A DNA stretch of 64,000 nucleotides from NCBI GenBank assembly GCA_028877275.1, contig JAPPFP010000009.1, positions 354,889 through 418,888 on the forward strand, given 5' to 3'. Below, one piece after another: positions 24,645 to 62,956 of this stretch. The notes beneath the pieces were generated by a model. That model saw only the letters and a program-made list of their open reading frames with translations, did not search any database and was not told where the DNA came from. This DNA comes from Acidobacteriota bacterium. GTDB lineage: Bacteria > Acidobacteriota > Thermoanaerobaculia > Multivoradales > Multivoraceae. Numbering within the stretch: the first letter of the stretch is position 1; the number at the start of each line of letters is the position of its first letter. A program made the translations under genes and the position numbers.

Positions 24645-25937
24645 ATGCGGATCGCCCTGCTCGTTGCCGTGGGCTGGGCGCTGGTGGCTACCATTCTGGC
24701 GATCGGACCGGATCGGATCGCGAGATGGCTGGGGGTGCCGAAGGAAGCAGAGACGCCGGTACCGCCCGAGGCCGCTGCGATTGCCGTCTACGGACCGCCG
24801 GTCGAGGTCGCGGCGCTGCCGGGCTGGGCCGGTGACGATGTGTCGGAGGCTTTGCCGGCCCTGCTCAGGAGTTGCGATCGACTGCTGGCGCAGCCCGCGG
24901 ACCGGCCGCTCCAGCCGGTCGAGCTGGGCGGCACGCCCGACGACTGGCGTCCGTTGTGCGGCGCACTGCGTGGCTTGGGCGACGCGGCCGGGGAGGAGGA
25001 GGTGCGCGCGATCATCGAGCGGGAGGCGGTCGCGGTACCGCTTTCCCGGGCCGACGTGGAGGCGGCCGGCGGCCGGCCGGGCGAAGGCTCGGTCTGGTCG
25101 CGCCGGATCGGCCTCTTCACCGGCTACTTCGAGCCCCTGCTGCATGGCAGCCGCCGTCGCAGCGCCCGCTACAGGGTGCCGCTCTACATGCAGCCCCCGG
25201 ACCTCGTCTCGGTCGACCTGGGGCGGTTTCGGGACGATCTGCGGGGGCGCCGCGTGGCCGGGAGAGTCCGGGAGCGCAGCCTGGAGCCCTACGACGACCG
25301 CCAGGCGATCACGTCCGGTTCGCTGGCCGGCCGCAACCTCGAACTTGTGTGGGTCGACGACGCGATCGACGCCTTCTTTCTTCACATCCAGGGTTCGGGG
25401 AGGATCGAACTCGACGACGGCTCCAGCTTCCGGGTCGGCTATGCGGCACAGAACGGCCACCCCTACCACGCGATCGGCCGCACCCTGGTCGACCGGGGGG
25501 AGCTGACGCTGGAGGAGGTGTCATTGCAATCGATCGATGCCTGGCTGCGGGAGCATTCCGACCGTGCCGGCGAGGTCATGGCGACGAACGACTCCTACGT
25601 TTTCTTTCGTGAGATCCGCGGCGAAGGCCCGGTGGGCGCCCAGGGCGTCGCGCTGACCCCGGAGCGTTCCCTGGCGGTCGACCGTCAGCACGTTCCGCTC
25701 GGCGTTCCCGTCTGGCTCGATGCGATGATCCCGGCAGCCAGCGTCAACGCGCCGGACGAGCGCCGCCAGTGGCTCCTCGTGGCCCAGGACGTCGGCGGCG
25801 CGATCCGCGGCGCCGTACGCGGCGACGTCTTCTGGGGGGCCGGCGAACGAGCCCGTGCGATTGCAGGCCGCATGGCGCACCGGGGCCGCTACTGGGCGCT
25901 GGTGCCCCGGGGCGTGGCGCTGGCACTCAATCTGTAG
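24645..25937 (+). CDS. mltA: Membrane-bound lytic murein transglycosylase A
   Basis: MltA blocks (LVWVDDAIDAFFLHIQGSGRI, VGYAAQNGHPY, 3D-domain C-terminus). Start at MRIALLVAV; the ORF-track 5' extension is rejected. Confidence 0.75.
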   Translation: MRIALLVAVGWALVATILAIGPDRIARWLGVPKEAETPVPPEAAAIAVYGPPVEVAALPGWAGDDVSEALPALLRSCDRLLAQPADRPLQPVELGGTPDDWRPLCGALRGLGDAAGEEEVRAIIEREAVAVPLSRADVEAAGGRPGEGSVWSRRIGLFTGYFEPLLHGSRRRSARYRVPLYMQPPDLVSVDLGRFRDDLRGRRVAGRVRERSLEPYDDRQAITSGSLAGRNLELVWVDDAIDAFFLHIQGSGRIELDDGSSFRVGYAAQNGHPYHAIGRTLVDRGELTLEEVSLQSIDAWLREHSDRAGEVMATNDSYVFFREIRGEGPVGAQGVALTPERSLAVDRQHVPLGVPVWLDAMIPAASVNAPDERRQWLLVAQDVGGAIRGAVRGDVFWGAGERARAIAGRMAHRGRYWALVPRGVALALNL

Positions 25938-46389: not shown

Positions 46390-46620
46390 GTGAAGATCAA
46401 ACTCGATATCGACTGTACGCCCGAAGAGGCGCGCGCCTTTCTCGGCCTCCCCGACGTCGCCGGAGTCCAGAACGAGATGCTGGAGAAGGTTCGCGACCGC
46501 ATGGTCGCCAACCTGAAGTACGCGGACCCGCAGGAGATGTTCCGGTTCTGGTTCCCGGGCGCCGCGGCGCGCATCGCGGCGCGGAGCGGCTCCGGCGCCG
46601 ACTCCGAGGACGGCGAGTAG
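46390..46620 (+). CDS. Small conserved hypothetical protein (76 aa)
   Basis: GTG start with GGAAGGGAG RBS. Coding-biased frame. Confidence 0.45.
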   Translation: MKIKLDIDCTPEEARAFLGLPDVAGVQNEMLEKVRDRMVANLKYADPQEMFRFWFPGAAARIAARSGSGADSEDGE

Positions 46621-46629
46621 GGGCGCCGG

Positions 46630-47199
46630 CTAGGCGCCCGCCCCCGCTTCCAGGCCCGTCACGTCGTACGACATGAGGATCAGGTCGTGCGTGGCGTCGT
46701 TCGGGTCGATGACCCAGTCGGCCAGCAGGGCCTCCACCGAGAAGCCCAGGTTCTGGAACATCTGACGGGCGCCGCGCTGCTCCCGGGCCATCTGGGCGAT
46801 GATCTTGGTCAGCCCGATCTGCTGGGCCAGGTGGAACACGTCGTGCGCCAGTTGGCCGCCGAGGCCGACCTGGCGGACCTCGGGCAGGACCATGATCCTG
46901 ATCTCGCCCAGGTGCCTCATCCAGGCCGACTCCCGCCGGTTCAGGCTGCCGTAGCCGACGACACGATCGCCGAGATGAGCGAGCACCGCGACGCGGGTTC
47001 CGGCCATCGCGCCTTCGACCCAGTTGTCGACGACCTTCGGATCCGTCATGTCGACGCGCAGGAATCGGAGGTCCTCTTCCGGCAGCGCCCGGGCAAAGGC
47101 GAGCACGTCATCGCGGTCTTCCTGCCTCAGAAGGCTGAACTGGAAGGACTGGTTCTCGAGGCGGACCGTCCGCGGGTACTGGGTCGCCATGTCGTTCAC
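46630..47199 (-). CDS. GNAT family N-acetyltransferase
   Basis: GNAT motif A region (VRQVGLGGQL...). GTG start overlaps the upstream stop (GTGA). Confidence 0.8.
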   Translation of the reverse strand: MNDMATQYPRTVRLENQSFQFSLLRQEDRDDVLAFARALPEEDLRFLRVDMTDPKVVDNWVEGAMAGTRVAVLAHLGDRVVGYGSLNRRESAWMRHLGEIRIMVLPEVRQVGLGGQLAHDVFHLAQQIGLTKIIAQMAREQRGARQMFQNLGFSVEALLADWVIDPNDATHDLILMSYDVTGLEAGAGA

Positions 47200-47564
47200 T
47201 CGGCTGTCTCCTCTTGGACTTGGGGCGTGGGTGGGGCCTGGTCGGTTGCCTCGTCGGTGGCGGAGCCGTCGGCGAGGCGATCGAGGTAGGTAGTGACGGC
47301 ATCGAAGGATCCGTCGATCGTGTTCTTGAACTGGCGCTGGCCTTCCTGTGCGGCGCCCCGCCAGGTCTGGATCAGATCACGTGCCTCCTCGGGGAGGTTC
47401 GGGACCTGGTTCATCATCCGGTCGGCGAGTTCGAGCTGACGGTCCTGGAGGGCGACGATCGCGTCGTAGCCGTTCTCGAAAGCGGCCCTCTGGAACTCGA
47501 GGACCTGCCTCTGGAAGGCAAGCACCTGTCTTGGGATGTTGCTCGGAATGTTGGCTCGGGTCAT
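47196..47564 (-). CDS. Phasin-like (granule/lipid-body-associated) small protein
   Basis: 122 aa, amphipathic helical. LAFQRQVLEFQRAAFENGYDAIVALQDRQLELADRMMNQ is reminiscent of phasin_2-type repeats. ATGA coupling on both sides. Confidence 0.5.
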   Translation of the reverse strand: MTRANIPSNIPRQVLAFQRQVLEFQRAAFENGYDAIVALQDRQLELADRMMNQVPNLPEEARDLIQTWRGAAQEGQRQFKNTIDGSFDAVTTYLDRLADGSATDEATDQAPPTPQVQEETAE

Positions 47565-48949
47565 GGTGTCTCCAGGTTGTGGAACTGCCGCGGTTTGGAC
47601 GGGGCCGGAACACTGCGCCGCCGTCGTCGGGGAGCGCGACCTGCCGCTTCGCGAAGTTCGTCGAACGACTCCGCGAGCAGGTCGGGCAGCACTTCGGCGT
47701 CGGGACAGGCTCGTTCGTCCACCGTGACGCCGACGTGCAGCGCCTGGTTGTAGGCGAAGAACGCGCAGGAGAGGCCCTGGCCGTAACCGATAGGCCAGGA
47801 GGGCGTGTAGCCGGAAAGCGGCCGGCCGGCCAGGAACTGGGGGATCTGGGGACCGTTCGCGTTGGCGACGGTCAGATGGAACGGCGGCCGCAACGAAGAG
47901 GTCATCGCGGTCGCGGCGGCCGCCAGCGGGCCGGCGGCGCCCTGCACGCCGGCGAAGCGCGACAGCACGTCCGCCACCCGCGCCGTCCGCATCAGGCGCG
48001 CGAGCTGGTGCACCGTACGGAGCCGGTCCGCTGCGCCGACGCTCAGGGGAACTTCGATGGGCAGCAGGCTTCGTCGTTTCCGATCGCGTTCGGGGAGGTC
48101 GGTGGCCAGAGCCACGCGCAGACTTCGGCCTCTGGTCGAGACGCCTCTCAGGTCCAGATAGCGTTCGAGTGCGCCGCCGGCCAGGGCGACGACCACATCC
48201 GAGAGCGCGCCGCCCAGCCGGGCCCGGATCAGCCGGATGTCGCGGTAGGAGAAGGCGCACCGAATCAGGCGGCGCCGTCCCCCCAGCTTTCGGTTGAACG
48301 GCATGGGCACCGGCGGCAGTGCGAGATCGGGCATCGTTTCGTTCAGGGTCAGGAGCGCGGTCCGCGTGTCTTCCGAGGTGAGTTCCTGGAGGCCCGCGGC
48401 CAGATGCTGGCCAATCAGTGTCCAGTTCTGGAGCCACTCCGCCCCGCGAGCGCCGCATCGGGCGCCGTTCGACGCCGGTTCGCCGGCCTTCTTCTCCTCG
48501 ACCGTCGTACCGCTCGCAAACAGCGCGTGGAAGAGGTCGCCGGTGCCCAGTCCGTCGACGGCGACCAGGTGGGATTTGACCAGCAGAGCGTCGCCGCCGT
48601 CGTGGTAGCCGGGCGCCAGATGGAACTCCCACAGCGGCCGGCGGGGATCGAGCGGCTTGCCGAGGGCTTCGTCGAACGCGGAAGCAGGGTCGCCGTTCGC
48701 GACGACGTGCAGGTGCTTGTCGAGTTCGAACGGCGCCGGGCGCCAGCGCGGAGGGCCATAGGGCGGTCCGTCGACACGGAGGCTGAACCGCGGCAGCCTG
48801 CGCAGCCGACCCATCCAGTGCAGGAGTTCCTGCCGGTCGATCTCGCCATCGACGAGCGCCAGACCCGCGACGTGCAGTCCGGGGCCGCGGCGCTCGAGGT
48901 TCCACAGGACCGCCTGGTCGGGCGTCAGGAGGGTGTTGGGAGCGGTCAC
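47561..48949 (-). CDS. Wax ester synthase/diacylglycerol acyltransferase (WS/DGAT) paralogue with a variant active-site motif
   Basis: WS/DGAT-like length and blocks. The H-H-x-x-x-D-G motif appears as SHLVAVDG. ATGA-coupled to the upstream hydrolase gene. Confidence 0.75.
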   Translation of the reverse strand: MTAPNTLLTPDQAVLWNLERRGPGLHVAGLALVDGEIDRQELLHWMGRLRRLPRFSLRVDGPPYGPPRWRPAPFELDKHLHVVANGDPASAFDEALGKPLDPRRPLWEFHLAPGYHDGGDALLVKSHLVAVDGLGTGDLFHALFASGTTVEEKKAGEPASNGARCGARGAEWLQNWTLIGQHLAAGLQELTSEDTRTALLTLNETMPDLALPPVPMPFNRKLGGRRRLIRCAFSYRDIRLIRARLGGALSDVVVALAGGALERYLDLRGVSTRGRSLRVALATDLPERDRKRRSLLPIEVPLSVGAADRLRTVHQLARLMRTARVADVLSRFAGVQGAAGPLAAAATAMTSSLRPPFHLTVANANGPQIPQFLAGRPLSGYTPSWPIGYGQGLSCAFFAYNQALHVGVTVDERACPDAEVLPDLLAESFDELREAAGRAPRRRRRSVPAPSKPRQFHNLETP

Positions 48950-49770
48950 GTGGCCGTCTCCGCGGTGAGCGCGGGACTCGGGTGGCGCTTCAGGAACCGT
49001 GCGAGATGCCAGTACGCGAGGGCGTTGGCGGCCAGGCCGGAATGGGTGCCGAGGACCTCCCGATTCAGCGACGGGTCGTGTAGCCGCGTGTAGCGCCAGG
49101 CGACGACGCCGTCCCGCCGGGTGAAGATGGCGAGCTGCGGCACCTCTTCCGGAAACGGGCTCTGCACCGAGCGGACCAGGTCGCAGCGGCAGTCACCCGA
49201 GAAGCAGGCGGGTTCCCGGGCGCCGTCCCGTTCGACGACGCGGCGGCGTACCGCCTCCGCCAGCCGCATCACCATGGGATGGGAGCGGACGCCCCGGATC
49301 GGTGAGCCCATCGTGGTGACGGACGCGACCAGATCGGGACGCAGGCTCGTTACACCGCGCGAGAGCATGCCGCCCAGGCTGTGGCCGACCAGGTGCGCGC
49401 GCCGGCCGGTCTCGTCCGCGGCCTTCTGGAGCGTTCCGATCAGCCGGTTGCCCAGCCGGTCGAGACAGTCGGCGTTCTGCCCGATGGCCGAACGGTAGGG
49501 GCGGTAGCCGATGCGGCCAAGCCAGCGGCGCATCGGCGCCAGGTAGCCGTCGGTTCCGGTGAAGCCGGGAACGACGATCACCGCGGCGCCGTCGCCGCGC
49601 GGCACGCCCATGCCGTGGTAGATGGGCGTGAACGGCAGGAAGGCAAACTCGGCGGCCGCGAACGGCTCGCGCCAAAGCGGCAGCGCCGCCGGCACCGAAT
49701 CCCGCAGGAGACGCGGGTTCGCGCTCCAGATCGGGCTGGCCTGACGCCCCCGCCGGGCCGACGCCGTCAC
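48946..49770 (-). CDS. Alpha/beta-hydrolase lipase/esterase (GHSLGG)
   Basis: VIVVPGFTG..., nucleophile elbow GHSLGG. GTG start overlaps the WS/DGAT stop (TAGTG). The ORF-track 5' extension is rejected. Confidence 0.7.
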   Translation of the reverse strand: MTASARRGRQASPIWSANPRLLRDSVPAALPLWREPFAAAEFAFLPFTPIYHGMGVPRGDGAAVIVVPGFTGTDGYLAPMRRWLGRIGYRPYRSAIGQNADCLDRLGNRLIGTLQKAADETGRRAHLVGHSLGGMLSRGVTSLRPDLVASVTTMGSPIRGVRSHPMVMRLAEAVRRRVVERDGAREPACFSGDCRCDLVRSVQSPFPEEVPQLAIFTRRDGVVAWRYTRLHDPSLNREVLGTHSGLAANALAYWHLARFLKRHPSPALTAETAT

Positions 49771-51284
49771 TAGGCGACTCCTCGCAGGGACGCGTCGGAA
49801 TGGGAGTCGGTCGCGGCGGCCTCTTCGGCCTGCGGCAGATCGACCTGGGGTGACGCTGCCGCGAAGCAGCGCGCGCCGCTCGGCTCCTCGCTCTCCACCC
49901 CGGCCGCCTCCCGGAGTTCGGCGTACGACTCCTCCAGGCACTGGGCGAGGAACCACGCGTCGGGGATGAGCTTGGCGTCCACCGTCACTCCCAGGGTGAT
50001 GCGCTGGTTGTAGCTCAGGATGGCGACGAACAGGCCGATGTTGTTCGAAACGATGCCGAGTGGTAGCCAGTCGACCAGCTTGTGGGGTCCGAAGTACAGC
50101 GGAATCATCGGCCCGGGCACGTTGGTCGAGACGGTGTTGAACAGGGTCTGGGAGAAGGGCATCGTCGCGGCGACGGCAGCCATGAGCGGCGGGACCCGGT
50201 CGCTGAACTGGGTCATCTGGTAAAAGGCCTTCGCCTGCCCGGCCTCCTTCAGCTTGTTCATCGCGTCCCGTTCCCTGCCGAGGCGTTCGACCGGGTCGTC
50301 GACCCCGACGAAGAGCGGAGCGATCATGTTCGAGACGAGATTCCCGAGCTGACCCCGTTCGTCCTGCTGGCGCATGCTGACCGGGCACATGGCGCGCAGC
50401 TCGAGTCCCTTCGGGTCCTGGCCGCGCTCACGCAGGTAGCGACCGATGCCGCCGGCGAGCACGGTGAGCACGACGTCGTTGACGGTGCCGCTCAGGGCGG
50501 ACTTGACGGCGCGCAGTTCGGGGAAGGAGAACTGGGCCCATGCGAACCCCCGCTCCTTGCTGACCGGTCGATTGAAGACGGTGCGCGGCGCAGGAGCGGC
50601 GGAGACCGGCAGGGTCGCGGCGCTGGCCGCCACCATCTCGCGTACGCGGTCCGCCATCTGGCGAGGGCGCGCGGCGTCGAAGGCGGCGTTCGTCCAGGAC
50701 TCGTTCAGTTGTCCGAGGCGATGCTGCATCGCTTCCTGGAGGAGGCTCAGAGAGTCCGGCAGCGGCTTCGGCGCCCAGGGCTCGGCGGGTGCGTCCGGCA
50801 GTTCCTCGGTGGGTGAGAAGTCGCTCAGCACCATCGACAGGTCGACGCCGGAGACGCCGTCGACCATCGCGTGGTGGATCTTCCAGACGACCGCCGTGTG
50901 TCCCGGGATGCCGCGGAGCAGAATCCCCTTCCAGAGCGGCCGGTTGCGGTCGAGCATGCCGCCGTAGGCCTCGGCGGCGGCGCGGGCCAGTACCTGGTGG
51001 TCGCTGTCCTCAGGGATCCAGACCTCCTCGACGTGGTTCTCCAGGTTGAAGGACGGGTCATCGACCCACACCGGGTGGGAGACGAGGAAGGGCGGGAACA
51101 GCACGCGCTGGCGGTAGCGGGGCAGCAGGTGCATGCGGGCGGCAAGCTGTTCGACCATGTACTCGCGCGAGAACTCGCCTTCGTAGACCATGCAGCCGCC
51201 GATGTGCATCGTCTCGTGGGGGCGTTCGACATAGAGGAAGGCGGCGTCGAGCGGGGTCAGGAATCGGTTCAGTTCCGTGGCCAT
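49770..51284 (-). CDS. Wax ester synthase/diacylglycerol acyltransferase (WS/DGAT)
   Basis: Canonical HHAMVDGVSG active-site motif and WS/DGAT N-terminal block LTPLDAAFLYVE. Confidence 0.85.
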   Translation of the reverse strand: MATELNRFLTPLDAAFLYVERPHETMHIGGCMVYEGEFSREYMVEQLAARMHLLPRYRQRVLFPPFLVSHPVWVDDPSFNLENHVEEVWIPEDSDHQVLARAAAEAYGGMLDRNRPLWKGILLRGIPGHTAVVWKIHHAMVDGVSGVDLSMVLSDFSPTEELPDAPAEPWAPKPLPDSLSLLQEAMQHRLGQLNESWTNAAFDAARPRQMADRVREMVAASAATLPVSAAPAPRTVFNRPVSKERGFAWAQFSFPELRAVKSALSGTVNDVVLTVLAGGIGRYLRERGQDPKGLELRAMCPVSMRQQDERGQLGNLVSNMIAPLFVGVDDPVERLGRERDAMNKLKEAGQAKAFYQMTQFSDRVPPLMAAVAATMPFSQTLFNTVSTNVPGPMIPLYFGPHKLVDWLPLGIVSNNIGLFVAILSYNQRITLGVTVDAKLIPDAWFLAQCLEESYAELREAAGVESEEPSGARCFAAASPQVDLPQAEEAAATDSHSDASLRGVA

Positions 51285-51397
51285 TTTGGGGTCTCCAGAA
51301 CGGGCGGATCGCGTATGGGTAGGGGTTTATGCTGCGCTGCTTGCTGCAACGCAGCAGAAGCCTCGCACAGAAACGGGCGATTGGCAAGGGTTGGCCC

Positions 51398-62381: not shown

Positions 62382-62956
62382 CGGAGCGGGATGGTAACGG
62401 TACGTCGTAGCCAGTCGACGAGCTGGTCGAGGTCGGTGAACACGCGCGCGCCGGCCGCGGCCGCGGCGGTCGACTGGTCGCTGTCGCCCGGCGGCCGGTC
62501 GAAGACAGCCAGGGGACGCCCGTAGCGGAGCGACAGCTCGATCTCGCTCCAGGTGCCGGCGCTGCCCGGCAGGGCAACCACGGCGTCGGCGGAGAGGACG
62601 TTGATGTGGTTGCGCGAGAAGGGACCGGTGCCGGACGCGCCGGACAGCGGCAGGTGAGTGCGGATCACGACCTCCACCCACGGGTTGGGGTAGCCGTCGG
62701 GCGAGCCGTCGCCGTCCTGCTGGCTCGGAACGACTCCCAGGCACAGGCCCTCTCGTCCCTCGGTCTCGGCGAAGGCGCGGCTGGTGGCCGTCATCGTGCC
62801 GCGGCCGGCGCCGGTCAGCAGGTGCCAGCCGTTCCCGGCGATCGCCCGGCCCAGGGGCGCGGCCAGGTCCTCGTGGCTCTCGGCGCCCGAACCCATCACG
62901 CCGACGATGGGGCGCCGCTCGACTACTGGGACTTGCCCCGGGCGCTGATCGGCCAC
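62378..62956 (-). CDS. TIGR00725/LOG-like Rossmann-fold nucleotide-binding protein
   Basis: IVGVMGSG glycine loop, GWHLLTGAGRGTM, VVALPGSAGTWSEIELS. Proposed GTG at 62956 has GGAGG 5 nt upstream but overlaps the upstream gene by 34 nt. Alternative starts are 62899 and 62896. Confidence 0.6.
   Translation of the reverse strand: MADQRPGQVPVVERRPIVGVMGSGAESHEDLAAPLGRAIAGNGWHLLTGAGRGTMTATSRAFAETEGREGLCLGVVPSQQDGDGSPDGYPNPWVEVVIRTHLPLSGASGTGPFSRNHINVLSADAVVALPGSAGTWSEIELSLRYGRPLAVFDRPPGDSDQSTAAAAAGARVFTDLDQLVDWLRRTVTIPLR

Follow-up and report, generated by a model that had tools for sequence, protein, structure and literature searches.

A small gene inside a WS/DGAT operon

We analysed a stretch of 64,000 nucleotides (the window) from an Acidobacteriota bacterium (assembly GCA_028877275.1, contig JAPPFP010000009.1, positions 354,889 to 418,888 of the forward strand), in which a small gene for a phasin-like protein lies between a gene for a wax-ester synthase/diacylglycerol acyltransferase (WS/DGAT) and one for a GNAT acetyltransferase. 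Together they form part of an operon on the minus strand, in the order WS/DGAT1, hydrolase, WS/DGAT2, small gene and GNAT. The genes and the ribosome-binding signal of the small gene are as follows:

47196..47564, minus strand: small phasin-like gene, 122 aa (translation, conservation, codon-position bias, AlphaFold2 model, hydrophobic moment)
47570..47573, minus strand: Shine-Dalgarno sequence GGAG, 5 nt 5' of the small-gene ATG and within the 3' end of WS/DGAT2 (direct sequence reading)
46630..47199, minus strand: GNAT acetyltransferase, last gene of the operon (Pfam PF00583)
47561..48949, minus strand: WS/DGAT2, a divergent WS/DGAT paralog (Pfam PF03007 and PF06974; TIGR02946 187 bits, below the cut-off of 310)
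48946..49770, minus strand: alpha/beta-hydrolase, putative lipase or esterase with a GHSLG nucleophile elbow (Pfam Abhydrolase_1, gene calls, motif)
49770..51284, minus strand: WS/DGAT1, canonical wax-ester synthase/DGAT and first gene of the operon (HHAMVDG; TIGR02946 386 bits, above the cut-off)

The original prediction, made from the sequence, had described a short, helical and amphipathic protein with an acidic C-terminal tail, resembling the phasins of polyhydroxyalkanoate (PHA) granules and possibly serving as a structural protein of lipid droplets. The open reading frame (ORF), on the minus strand, translates into exactly the peptide quoted there, the neighbours named in that prediction were recovered by their domains (PF03007 and PF06974 upstream, PF00583 downstream), and its remark that no PHA synthase is nearby held, as tblastn found no homologue of PhaC, PhaE or PhaR within the window.

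The small gene is tightly packed between its neighbours. Its ATG (47564-47562) shares bases with the TGA of WS/DGAT2 (ATGA), and its own TGA (47198-47196) shares bases with the GTG start codon of GNAT (GTGA), an arrangement that, together with the GGAG 5 nt upstream, is typical of translational coupling. A genome scan with one genome per species, for which the close-family alignment alone served as query, found the five-gene block in 39 loci (three of them without WS/DGAT2), and the small gene was kept at the same position in all 39 species-level genomes. The original prediction had named absence from orthologous operons as a point that would tell against it, and the ORF was present in every one. 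The genomes that carry it are those of sponge-associated Acidobacteriota, all of them Thermoanaerobaculia metagenome-assembled genomes (MAGs), labelled either Ca. Multivorans / Multivoraceae or 'Holophagales SB06xx'. Over the 3,498 codons compared across orthologous loci, the small gene showed 181, 252 and 1086 differences at codon positions 1, 2 and 3, respectively; of the codon changes, 823 were synonymous and 541 non-synonymous. The small ORF is a real coding gene evolving under purifying selection.

The small protein and its architecture

We found 33 close homologues of the small protein, with identities of 61-100% except for one chimeric entry. That entry, P0033 (211 aa), joins a PMT_2-like N-terminus and the C-terminus of WS/DGAT2 to the small protein's C-terminal half. 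It was considered as a natural fusion and dropped, as this protein, from a contig of ~4.5 kb, is most likely an assembly or gene-calling chimera.

The AlphaFold2 model built from the family alignment has two long helices (residues 12-53 and 59-101, pLDDT ~90 or above) and a disordered tail (~102-122, pLDDT <50 from residue 104), and the turn that joins the helices (residues 54-58) has a conserved P-N-L-P in which P55-x-x-P58 is invariant. The core is amphipathic, with a mean hydrophobic moment of 0.47 as against 0.24 +/- 0.04 in 1000 shuffled sequences, none of which reached 0.47. Residues 100-122 hold six D/E and no K/R, the whole protein has an isoelectric point of 4.4, and an acidic tail is found in 30 of the 33 clade members, so that the description of the protein as short, helical, amphipathic and acidic at its C-terminus is borne out. 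Many polar residues are invariant (Q25, E30, Q40, R42, Q43, R49, E60, R69, Q76, D84, S86, D95 and R96), and the sole lysine, Lys80, is nearly so. Pfam and NCBIfam scans found no enzymatic domain.

A phasin-like family outside Pfam and NCBIfam

The small protein had no match at E <=1 to any of the phasin models PF05597, PF09602, PF09650, PF09361 or TIGR01841/01837/02131. The search of phasin-family hidden Markov models proposed in the original prediction thus gave no phasin hit, and the sole Pfam/NCBIfam matches were sub-threshold ones to WXG100. A profile built from the clade alone, run against 1.84 billion proteins, recovered 469 cluster representatives at E <=1e-3, of which 65 reached <=1e-10, and none of these proteins has a Pfam assignment. 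The family so defined comprises proteins of 90-200 aa that share a two-helix core of ~90 residues, with significant profile-level homology across the core, a core motif FQK..FDN.F.A....Q.Q.E...P.EGK....W....GR..FK..VD.SF, and the positions Q40, P58 and W68 nearly invariant across 146 members; the broad-family alignments contain no conserved stretch of 7-10 columns. Among 279 members outside the clade, 55 have Lys/Ala-rich, histone-H1-like tails that are basic as in PhaF, and 182 are essentially tail-less. By these profile matches, the small protein is a member of a previously unnamed phasin-like family that is absent from Pfam and NCBIfam.

Links to recognised phasins were faint at the level of sequence. 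When the 146 members were scanned, three matched Phasin_2 (best E 1.2e-4), two PhaP_Bmeg and one TIGR01837 (9e-5), all below the cut-offs, with Phasin_2 and PhaP_Bmeg being the most recurrent Pfam families in that set; in a scan of 10 relatives, one matched Phasin_2 at E 0.11. Several distant members carry the JGI name 'polyhydroxyalkanoate synthesis regulator phasin', and the ten nearest relatives outside the clade are nameless in the source databases. An hhalign comparison with eight annotated TIGR01841 phasins (from plasmids) was negative, with probabilities of 1-5%, indicating that the phasin-like family is not a detectable member of the PhaP1-type family. Searches of PDB sequences with the family profiles returned designed repeat proteins and, at E 0.48, ESAT-6-like proteins, and nothing else, and fold searches with the small protein returned generic helical hairpins, with those of EsxB and EsxA among the weak matches.

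The WXG100 matches and these weak fold hits, together with a W68-R69-G70 triplet, raise the question of whether the protein could be a WXG100/ESAT-6-like substrate of a specialised secretion system. We rejected this reading as extremely improbable, since the matches fall well short of their thresholds (PF06013, E 0.005 and 17.5 versus 27.3 bits; TIGR03930, 16.7 versus 44.85 bits), the W-x-G lies inside helix 2 and not in the turn (54-58), G70 is variable, and the genomic contexts that are informative are all storage loci. The original prediction had listed clear homology to an unrelated family as a possible refutation, and no such homology was found.

Relatives and paralogs at PHA loci

The genomic neighbourhoods of distant members are those typical of phasin genes. 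Three of them, P0213, P0258 and P0259, are matched by the clade-only profile in the 1.84-billion-protein library (E 5e-12, 3.5e-8 and 1.9e-7), and all three come from Syntrophia-type genomes and are divergent from a PhaR gene (PF07879); in two of these three loci phaE, phaC, a MaoC hydratase and a GAF protein lie within 4 kb of the phasin-like gene. Multivorans genomes contain paralogs of their own, P0276 and P0070 (~111 aa), which are 32-34% identical to the small protein (pairwise E 9e-18 for P0276) and sit at a locus where the paralog diverges from phaR and is followed by phaE, phaC and a GNAT gene. Four of the five members that are divergent from PhaR (P0276, P0070, P0213, P0258 and P0259) thus also adjoin PhaE/PhaC. 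In an orthologous genome, the PHA locus (L053) and the WS/DGAT operon (L010) lie on one contig, ~99 kb apart.

The GNAT protein of the window and that of the PHA locus are likewise paralogs, 37% identical over 171 residues (E 4e-38). The presence of a phasin-like paralog and a GNAT paralog in the PHA operon means that each storage locus has its own phasin-like and GNAT pair and, as judged from these sequence relationships, the two genes were duplicated together. In a neighbour-joining tree, the window clade joins the group of locus L051 with 86% bootstrap support and the two PHA-linked groups are separate with 100% each, the proteins linked to WS/DGAT standing apart from both PHA-linked clades.

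Two features of the PHA loci are recorded here as side observations. The Multivorans PhaE is a mere 138-147 aa long (L053, 9346-9762; L063, 6454-6897), compared with 303 aa in the Syntrophia-type loci L047 and L049, and the Multivorans class III PHA synthase PhaC retains the GYCMGG lipase box.

A candidate PhaR operator upstream of the operon

Upstream of WS/DGAT1 we found a palindrome next to a putative promoter:

51342..51356, no strand: palindrome TGCTGC-N3-GCAGCA (core CTGC-N3-GCAG), candidate PhaR operator (uniqueness, conservation, published PhaR sites)
51359..51387, minus strand: putative sigma-70-type promoter, -35 TTGCCA (51387-51382), 17-nt spacer, -10 GAGGCT (51364-51359) (sequence reading, orthologue alignment)

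The upstream sequence of the operon reads TTGCCA-17 nt-GAGGCT-TTC-TGCTGC-GTT-GCAGCA-AGCAGCGCAGCATAA, so that the palindrome begins 3 nt past the putative -10; the related repeats GCAGCGCAGCATAA (51329-51341) come next. The -35 and -10 elements are conserved when orthologous loci are aligned, but a scanner for consensus promoters and terminators did not call an operon promoter and gave nothing useful in this GC-rich region, and the two elements are for this reason putative. The perfect palindrome is unique in the window, and with up to one mismatch there are two sites as against 0.12 expected. Two other CTGC-N3-GCAG sites in the window (25138-25152 and 62562-62572) were considered as operators and set aside as probably due to chance, as each falls within a long ORF and has no extended arms.

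Of 38 orthologous loci, 36 have the palindrome conserved at a distance of 66-79 nt from the start codon, on its upstream side, and in these the CTGC/GCAG arms are invariant and the 3-nt spacer takes nine forms; the other two keep a TGC-N3-GCA core. Invariant arms around a variable spacer are the signature of a dimeric DNA-binding protein. The core CTGC-N3-GCAG is the published binding sequence of Rhodobacter sphaeroides PhaR, CTGCNNNGCAG (PMC12542648), the motif of Sinorhizobium meliloti PhaR validated by electrophoretic mobility shift assay is YGCRNYGCR, for example TTCTGCTGCAACGCC (PMC12542648), and TGC-rich PhaR boxes have also been described (PMC10888616). The palindrome of the window equals the R. 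sphaeroides site and fits the S. meliloti motif.

The same element recurs at the PHA loci. TGC-N3-GCA occurs exactly once in each of six intergenic regions between phaR and the divergent phasin-like gene (three Multivorans-type and three Syntrophia-type), and a 13-mer, CAGCGCAGCATAA, and a 12-mer, TGCTGCGTTGCA, are common to the phaR-phaP-like intergenic regions and the region upstream of WS/DGAT1. TGC-N3-GCA was absent from the upstream regions examined of loci L064, L142 and L065. The conserved palindrome, its match to published sites and its occurrence in phaR intergenic regions suggest that the Multivorans WS/DGAT operon, including the small gene, very probably belongs to the PhaR regulon, with binding of PhaR predicted from these sites.

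Linkage to neutral-lipid genes in other lineages

The combination of WS/DGAT, a phasin-like gene and GNAT was found in three further lineages. Locus L051 has a WS/DGAT2-like gene, the phasin-like gene P0034 (with a Lys-rich tail) and a GNAT gene that starts on the last base of the P0034 stop codon; in L064, from another Thermoanaerobaculia MAG, a canonical WS/DGAT is divergent from P0272, which is followed by an overlapping GNAT; and L142 has a phasin-like gene, GNAT and a convergent WS/DGAT. Another lipid context is offered by L065 (1925-4113), where genes for a DUF3336-patatin lipase and then a PAF-AH/PETase-like hydrolase come after P0053, with response-regulator genes on the flanks; DUF3336 plus patatin is the domain pair of the yeast Tgl3/4/5-type triacylglycerol lipases. 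At L051 (2277-2576, minus strand) we also observed a second, tail-less family member, P0050 (99 aa), convergent and directly after GNAT.

The GNAT family at storage loci

GNAT is the most conserved gene of the operon, its orthologues being 77-97% identical. A metagenome scan queried with the GNAT alignment returned more than 463 relatives, and the counts given here refer to the best 80 loci (L066-L145). A WS/DGAT homologue was present in 41 of the 80, within 300 nt of GNAT in 36, often in convergent orientation and with an alpha/beta-hydrolase next to it; PhaC, PhaE or PhaR was present in 17, and both WS/DGAT and PhaE/PhaC stood side by side in eight, suggesting that the two storage systems are genomically entangled. 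Among the 39 loci of at least 5 kb, 32 carried WS/DGAT or PHA genes. This GNAT family marks storage loci. A phasin-like gene was present in three of the 80 loci, and from these counts GNAT appears to be the broader and older partner of WS/DGAT, with the phasin-like gene a lineage-specific addition.

Two other gene types were seen near these GNAT genes. In several loci where GNAT and WS/DGAT are convergent, a protein with the PF21863 (HTH_67) domain (E 3e-78) is encoded upstream of GNAT (for example L088, 3548-4615, and L116, 3382-4269), and it may regulate those loci instead of PhaR. At L109 (3996-4949), a gene for a repeat protein of 200-307 aa lies between phaR and GNAT, and likewise at L121, L119, L076, L115, L118, L132, L136 and L144. 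It has 4-7 copies of 'A[RK]QG[MV]E.FV..QK.LLDLA..QN', its matches are all sub-threshold (ApoB100_C 7e-5, Phasin_2 0.004), and the profile of the phasin-like family does not match it. It looks like yet another unannotated type of phasin.

Lipid enzymes and flanking genes

The two WS/DGAT proteins of the operon differ in their active-site motifs. In WS/DGAT1, HHAM[VI]DG is kept in all 43 readable loci. WS/DGAT2 has xH-x4-DG (SHLVAVDG) and not HHxxxDG, and in every readable orthologous locus the first His is replaced by S, T, A, C or I and one extra residue is present; to judge from this motif, WS/DGAT2 may have an altered activity or none. Its conservation is also among the lowest in the operon, and the gene is absent from three of the 39 genome-scan loci (L030, L035 and L037), where the small gene and GNAT are retained.

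The flanking genes vary between lineages, which makes the five-gene block the conserved unit. In one Multivorans lineage (L006/L007, 10978-20342) a PIN-MazE toxin-antitoxin pair and a CRISPR-Cas locus (a Cas1-Cas4 fusion, Cas2 and Cas3) come after the operon, and synteny there is limited to the five genes. In the window, another small gene lies just 3' of GNAT:

46390-46620, plus strand: DUF6489 (PF20099) small gene, convergent with and just 3' of GNAT (Pfam)

A DUF6489 gene is found in roughly half of the orthologous loci, at distances from 10 nt to ~3.5 kb, and the rest are without it.

Discussion

In the small gene described here, a known concept, that of the phasin or the coat protein of lipid droplets, meets a family that had not been recognised, and both its genomic and its regulatory setting are new. 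Phasins fall into four unrelated Pfam families (PMC5658603). Like PhaP (PF09361 Phasin_2 / TIGR01841, exemplified by Cupriavidus necator PhaP1 and PhaP2), the protein is small, non-enzymatic, amphipathic and all-helical, and, as with classical phaP, the PHA-locus members of its family adjoin phaR and phaC and the promoter of the window operon has a candidate PhaR-type operator. Unlike PhaP, it has no detectable sequence relationship to that family, its two-helix core spans ~90 residues and not ~190, and the gene is part of a WS/DGAT operon in a 64-kb window that holds no PHA synthase gene. It shares with Pseudomonas PhaF and PhaI (PF05597 / TIGR01837 / COG3937) the modular combination of a helical granule-binding domain and a charged tail, and the likeness to PhaF extends to the Lys/Ala-rich tails of 55 of the 279 non-clade members and to the one member that matches TIGR01837; however, the window protein matches neither PF05597 nor TIGR01837, and the tail of its clade is acidic and not basic, which makes tethering to DNA unlikely.

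On the side of neutral lipids, the closest comparison is with TadA/HBHA and MLDS of Rhodococcus and Mycobacterium. With these the small protein would share a structural or organising role on prokaryotic triacylglycerol bodies, and amphipathic helices and charged tails are common to both sides (PMC10699116, PMC5504291). The known prokaryotic lipid-body proteins are actinobacterial (PMC10699116). In contrast, the small protein comes from the phylum Acidobacteriota, is encoded inside a biosynthetic operon, derives from a PHA-locus gene family and shares no family with them, the comparison having been made through Pfam/NCBIfam scans of the window protein. The operator core CTGC-N3-GCAG / YGCRNYGCR near the core promoter resembles the arrangement in the alpha-proteobacterial PhaR (AniA) regulon, where the operator lies near the core promoter at phaP1, phaP2 and SMa1961 of S. 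meliloti (PMC12542648), with the difference that here the target operon encodes WS/DGAT neutral-lipid enzymes and that binding by an Acidobacteriota PhaR is predicted from sequence. In our literature searches, neither a phasin-type gene within a WS/DGAT operon, nor a wax-ester synthase controlled by PhaR, nor this GNAT family in storage loci was described.

We propose that the small protein could be a PhaR-regulated phasin paralog that coats or organises the neutral-lipid inclusions made by WS/DGAT, a reading for and against which we see the chances as about evenly balanced. The lipid-droplet role is drawn from gene linkage, which in four lineages is to WS/DGAT and in one more to a patatin-type lipase, and the persistence of the small gene in genome-scan loci that have lost WS/DGAT2 was counted in favour of the link to neutral lipids. 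The idea is physically plausible, since the modelled hairpin is strongly amphipathic, phasins are defined as small amphiphilic proteins of the granule surface and a phasin of Rhodococcus ruber was also isolated from lipid inclusions (PMC5658603). As to the phasin likeness claimed in the original prediction, it stands in part: the family occupies the phasin slot of PHA loci, a paralog exists in the same genomes and the operon has a PhaR-box palindrome, whereas the recognised phasin models are unmatched.

The mechanism that we infer includes the binding of PhaR, the kind of lipid that is made, the attachment to its surface and the roles of the tail and of GNAT. PhaR would repress the lipid operon through the TGCTGC-N3-GCAGCA operator abutting the -10. 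As storage inclusions begin to form, PhaR would be titrated away and the operon expressed, and WS/DGAT1 would make wax esters or triacylglycerol. The hairpin of the small protein could then open and lay its hydrophobic faces onto the surface of the nascent lipid body, with the acidic, disordered tail facing the cytoplasm, where it may stop the bodies from coalescing or from sticking to other cell components. The co-duplicated GNAT might act on the same surface or on the small protein.

Several observations weigh against a coat of lipid inclusions. The label 'phasin' comes from context and not from homology to a characterised phasin, given the lack of a match to the four Pfam phasin families and the negative hhalign result. 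No WS/DGAT and no GNAT gene lies near the closest outgroup, P0271 (51% identity), and with WS/DGAT in 41 of the 80 GNAT loci and a phasin-like gene in three, the small protein would be an accessory and not a core component. The many invariant polar residues suggest a specific protein partner rather than generic coating. Moreover, the PhaR box speaks for joint regulation with PHA, which is just as much to be expected of a second PHA-granule phasin.

This last possibility, in which the protein would coat PHA or mixed PHA/lipid granules and PhaR would control its operon, lipid genes included, draws further strength from the other family members being PHA-locus genes and from the eight of 80 GNAT loci with WS/DGAT and PhaE/PhaC side by side, and many PHA producers do have several phasins scattered over the genome. 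Nevertheless it seems to us rather unlikely: the gene is translationally coupled to WS/DGAT2 and not to a PHA gene, the genome already owns a dedicated paralog at its PHA locus, and the WS/DGAT-linked copies have tree branches of their own. Three other lineages, too, pair the protein with WS/DGAT and have no PHA gene on the available contigs, and in two of these (L064 and L142) the upstream region examined has no PhaR box. The invariant polar residues lead to a different alternative, that the protein is not a coat but a specific partner, which would either tether or regulate WS/DGAT as an adaptor or activator or serve GNAT as a substrate or regulatory subunit. Start and stop codons that overlap both neighbours would fit such a role, as would the co-duplication with GNAT, the adjacency of the two genes in L051, L064 and L142 (overlapping or abutting in two of the three) and the nearly invariant K80, which as the sole lysine is a candidate acetylation site. 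We consider this unlikely, because GNAT does without the small protein in 77 of the 80 related loci, the small protein persists where WS/DGAT2 has been lost, the Syntrophia-type PHA-locus members have no GNAT, and with its long amphipathic hairpin and charged tail the protein is built like a coat protein.

Lipid-body structural proteins of bacteria are known from Actinobacteria alone (TadA, MLDS). For Gram-negative producers of wax esters and triacylglycerol, the locus described here supplies a concrete candidate whose origin can be explained by evolution, as a coat protein of the PHA type that would have been duplicated into a WS/DGAT operon, and a regulatory link in the form of a candidate PhaR operator on a lipid operon. 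It also exposes two gaps, a phasin-like family of at least 469 clusters outside Pfam/NCBIfam and a GNAT family that adjoins WS/DGAT in 36 of 80 loci, both of which matter for the annotation of carbon storage in uncultured bacteria and for the engineering of lipid and PHA bodies.

Tentatively, and with somewhat less than even confidence, we hypothesise that sponge-symbiont Acidobacteriota have a single PhaR-controlled storage regulon with duplicated phasin and GNAT pairs, one for the class III PHA synthase and one for WS/DGAT bodies. If this is true, the small protein would be the first dedicated phasin of wax-ester or triacylglycerol bodies outside Actinobacteria, drawn from a large phasin family that has no database model, and the GNAT family would be a general and so far unrecognised component of bacterial storage-inclusion loci.

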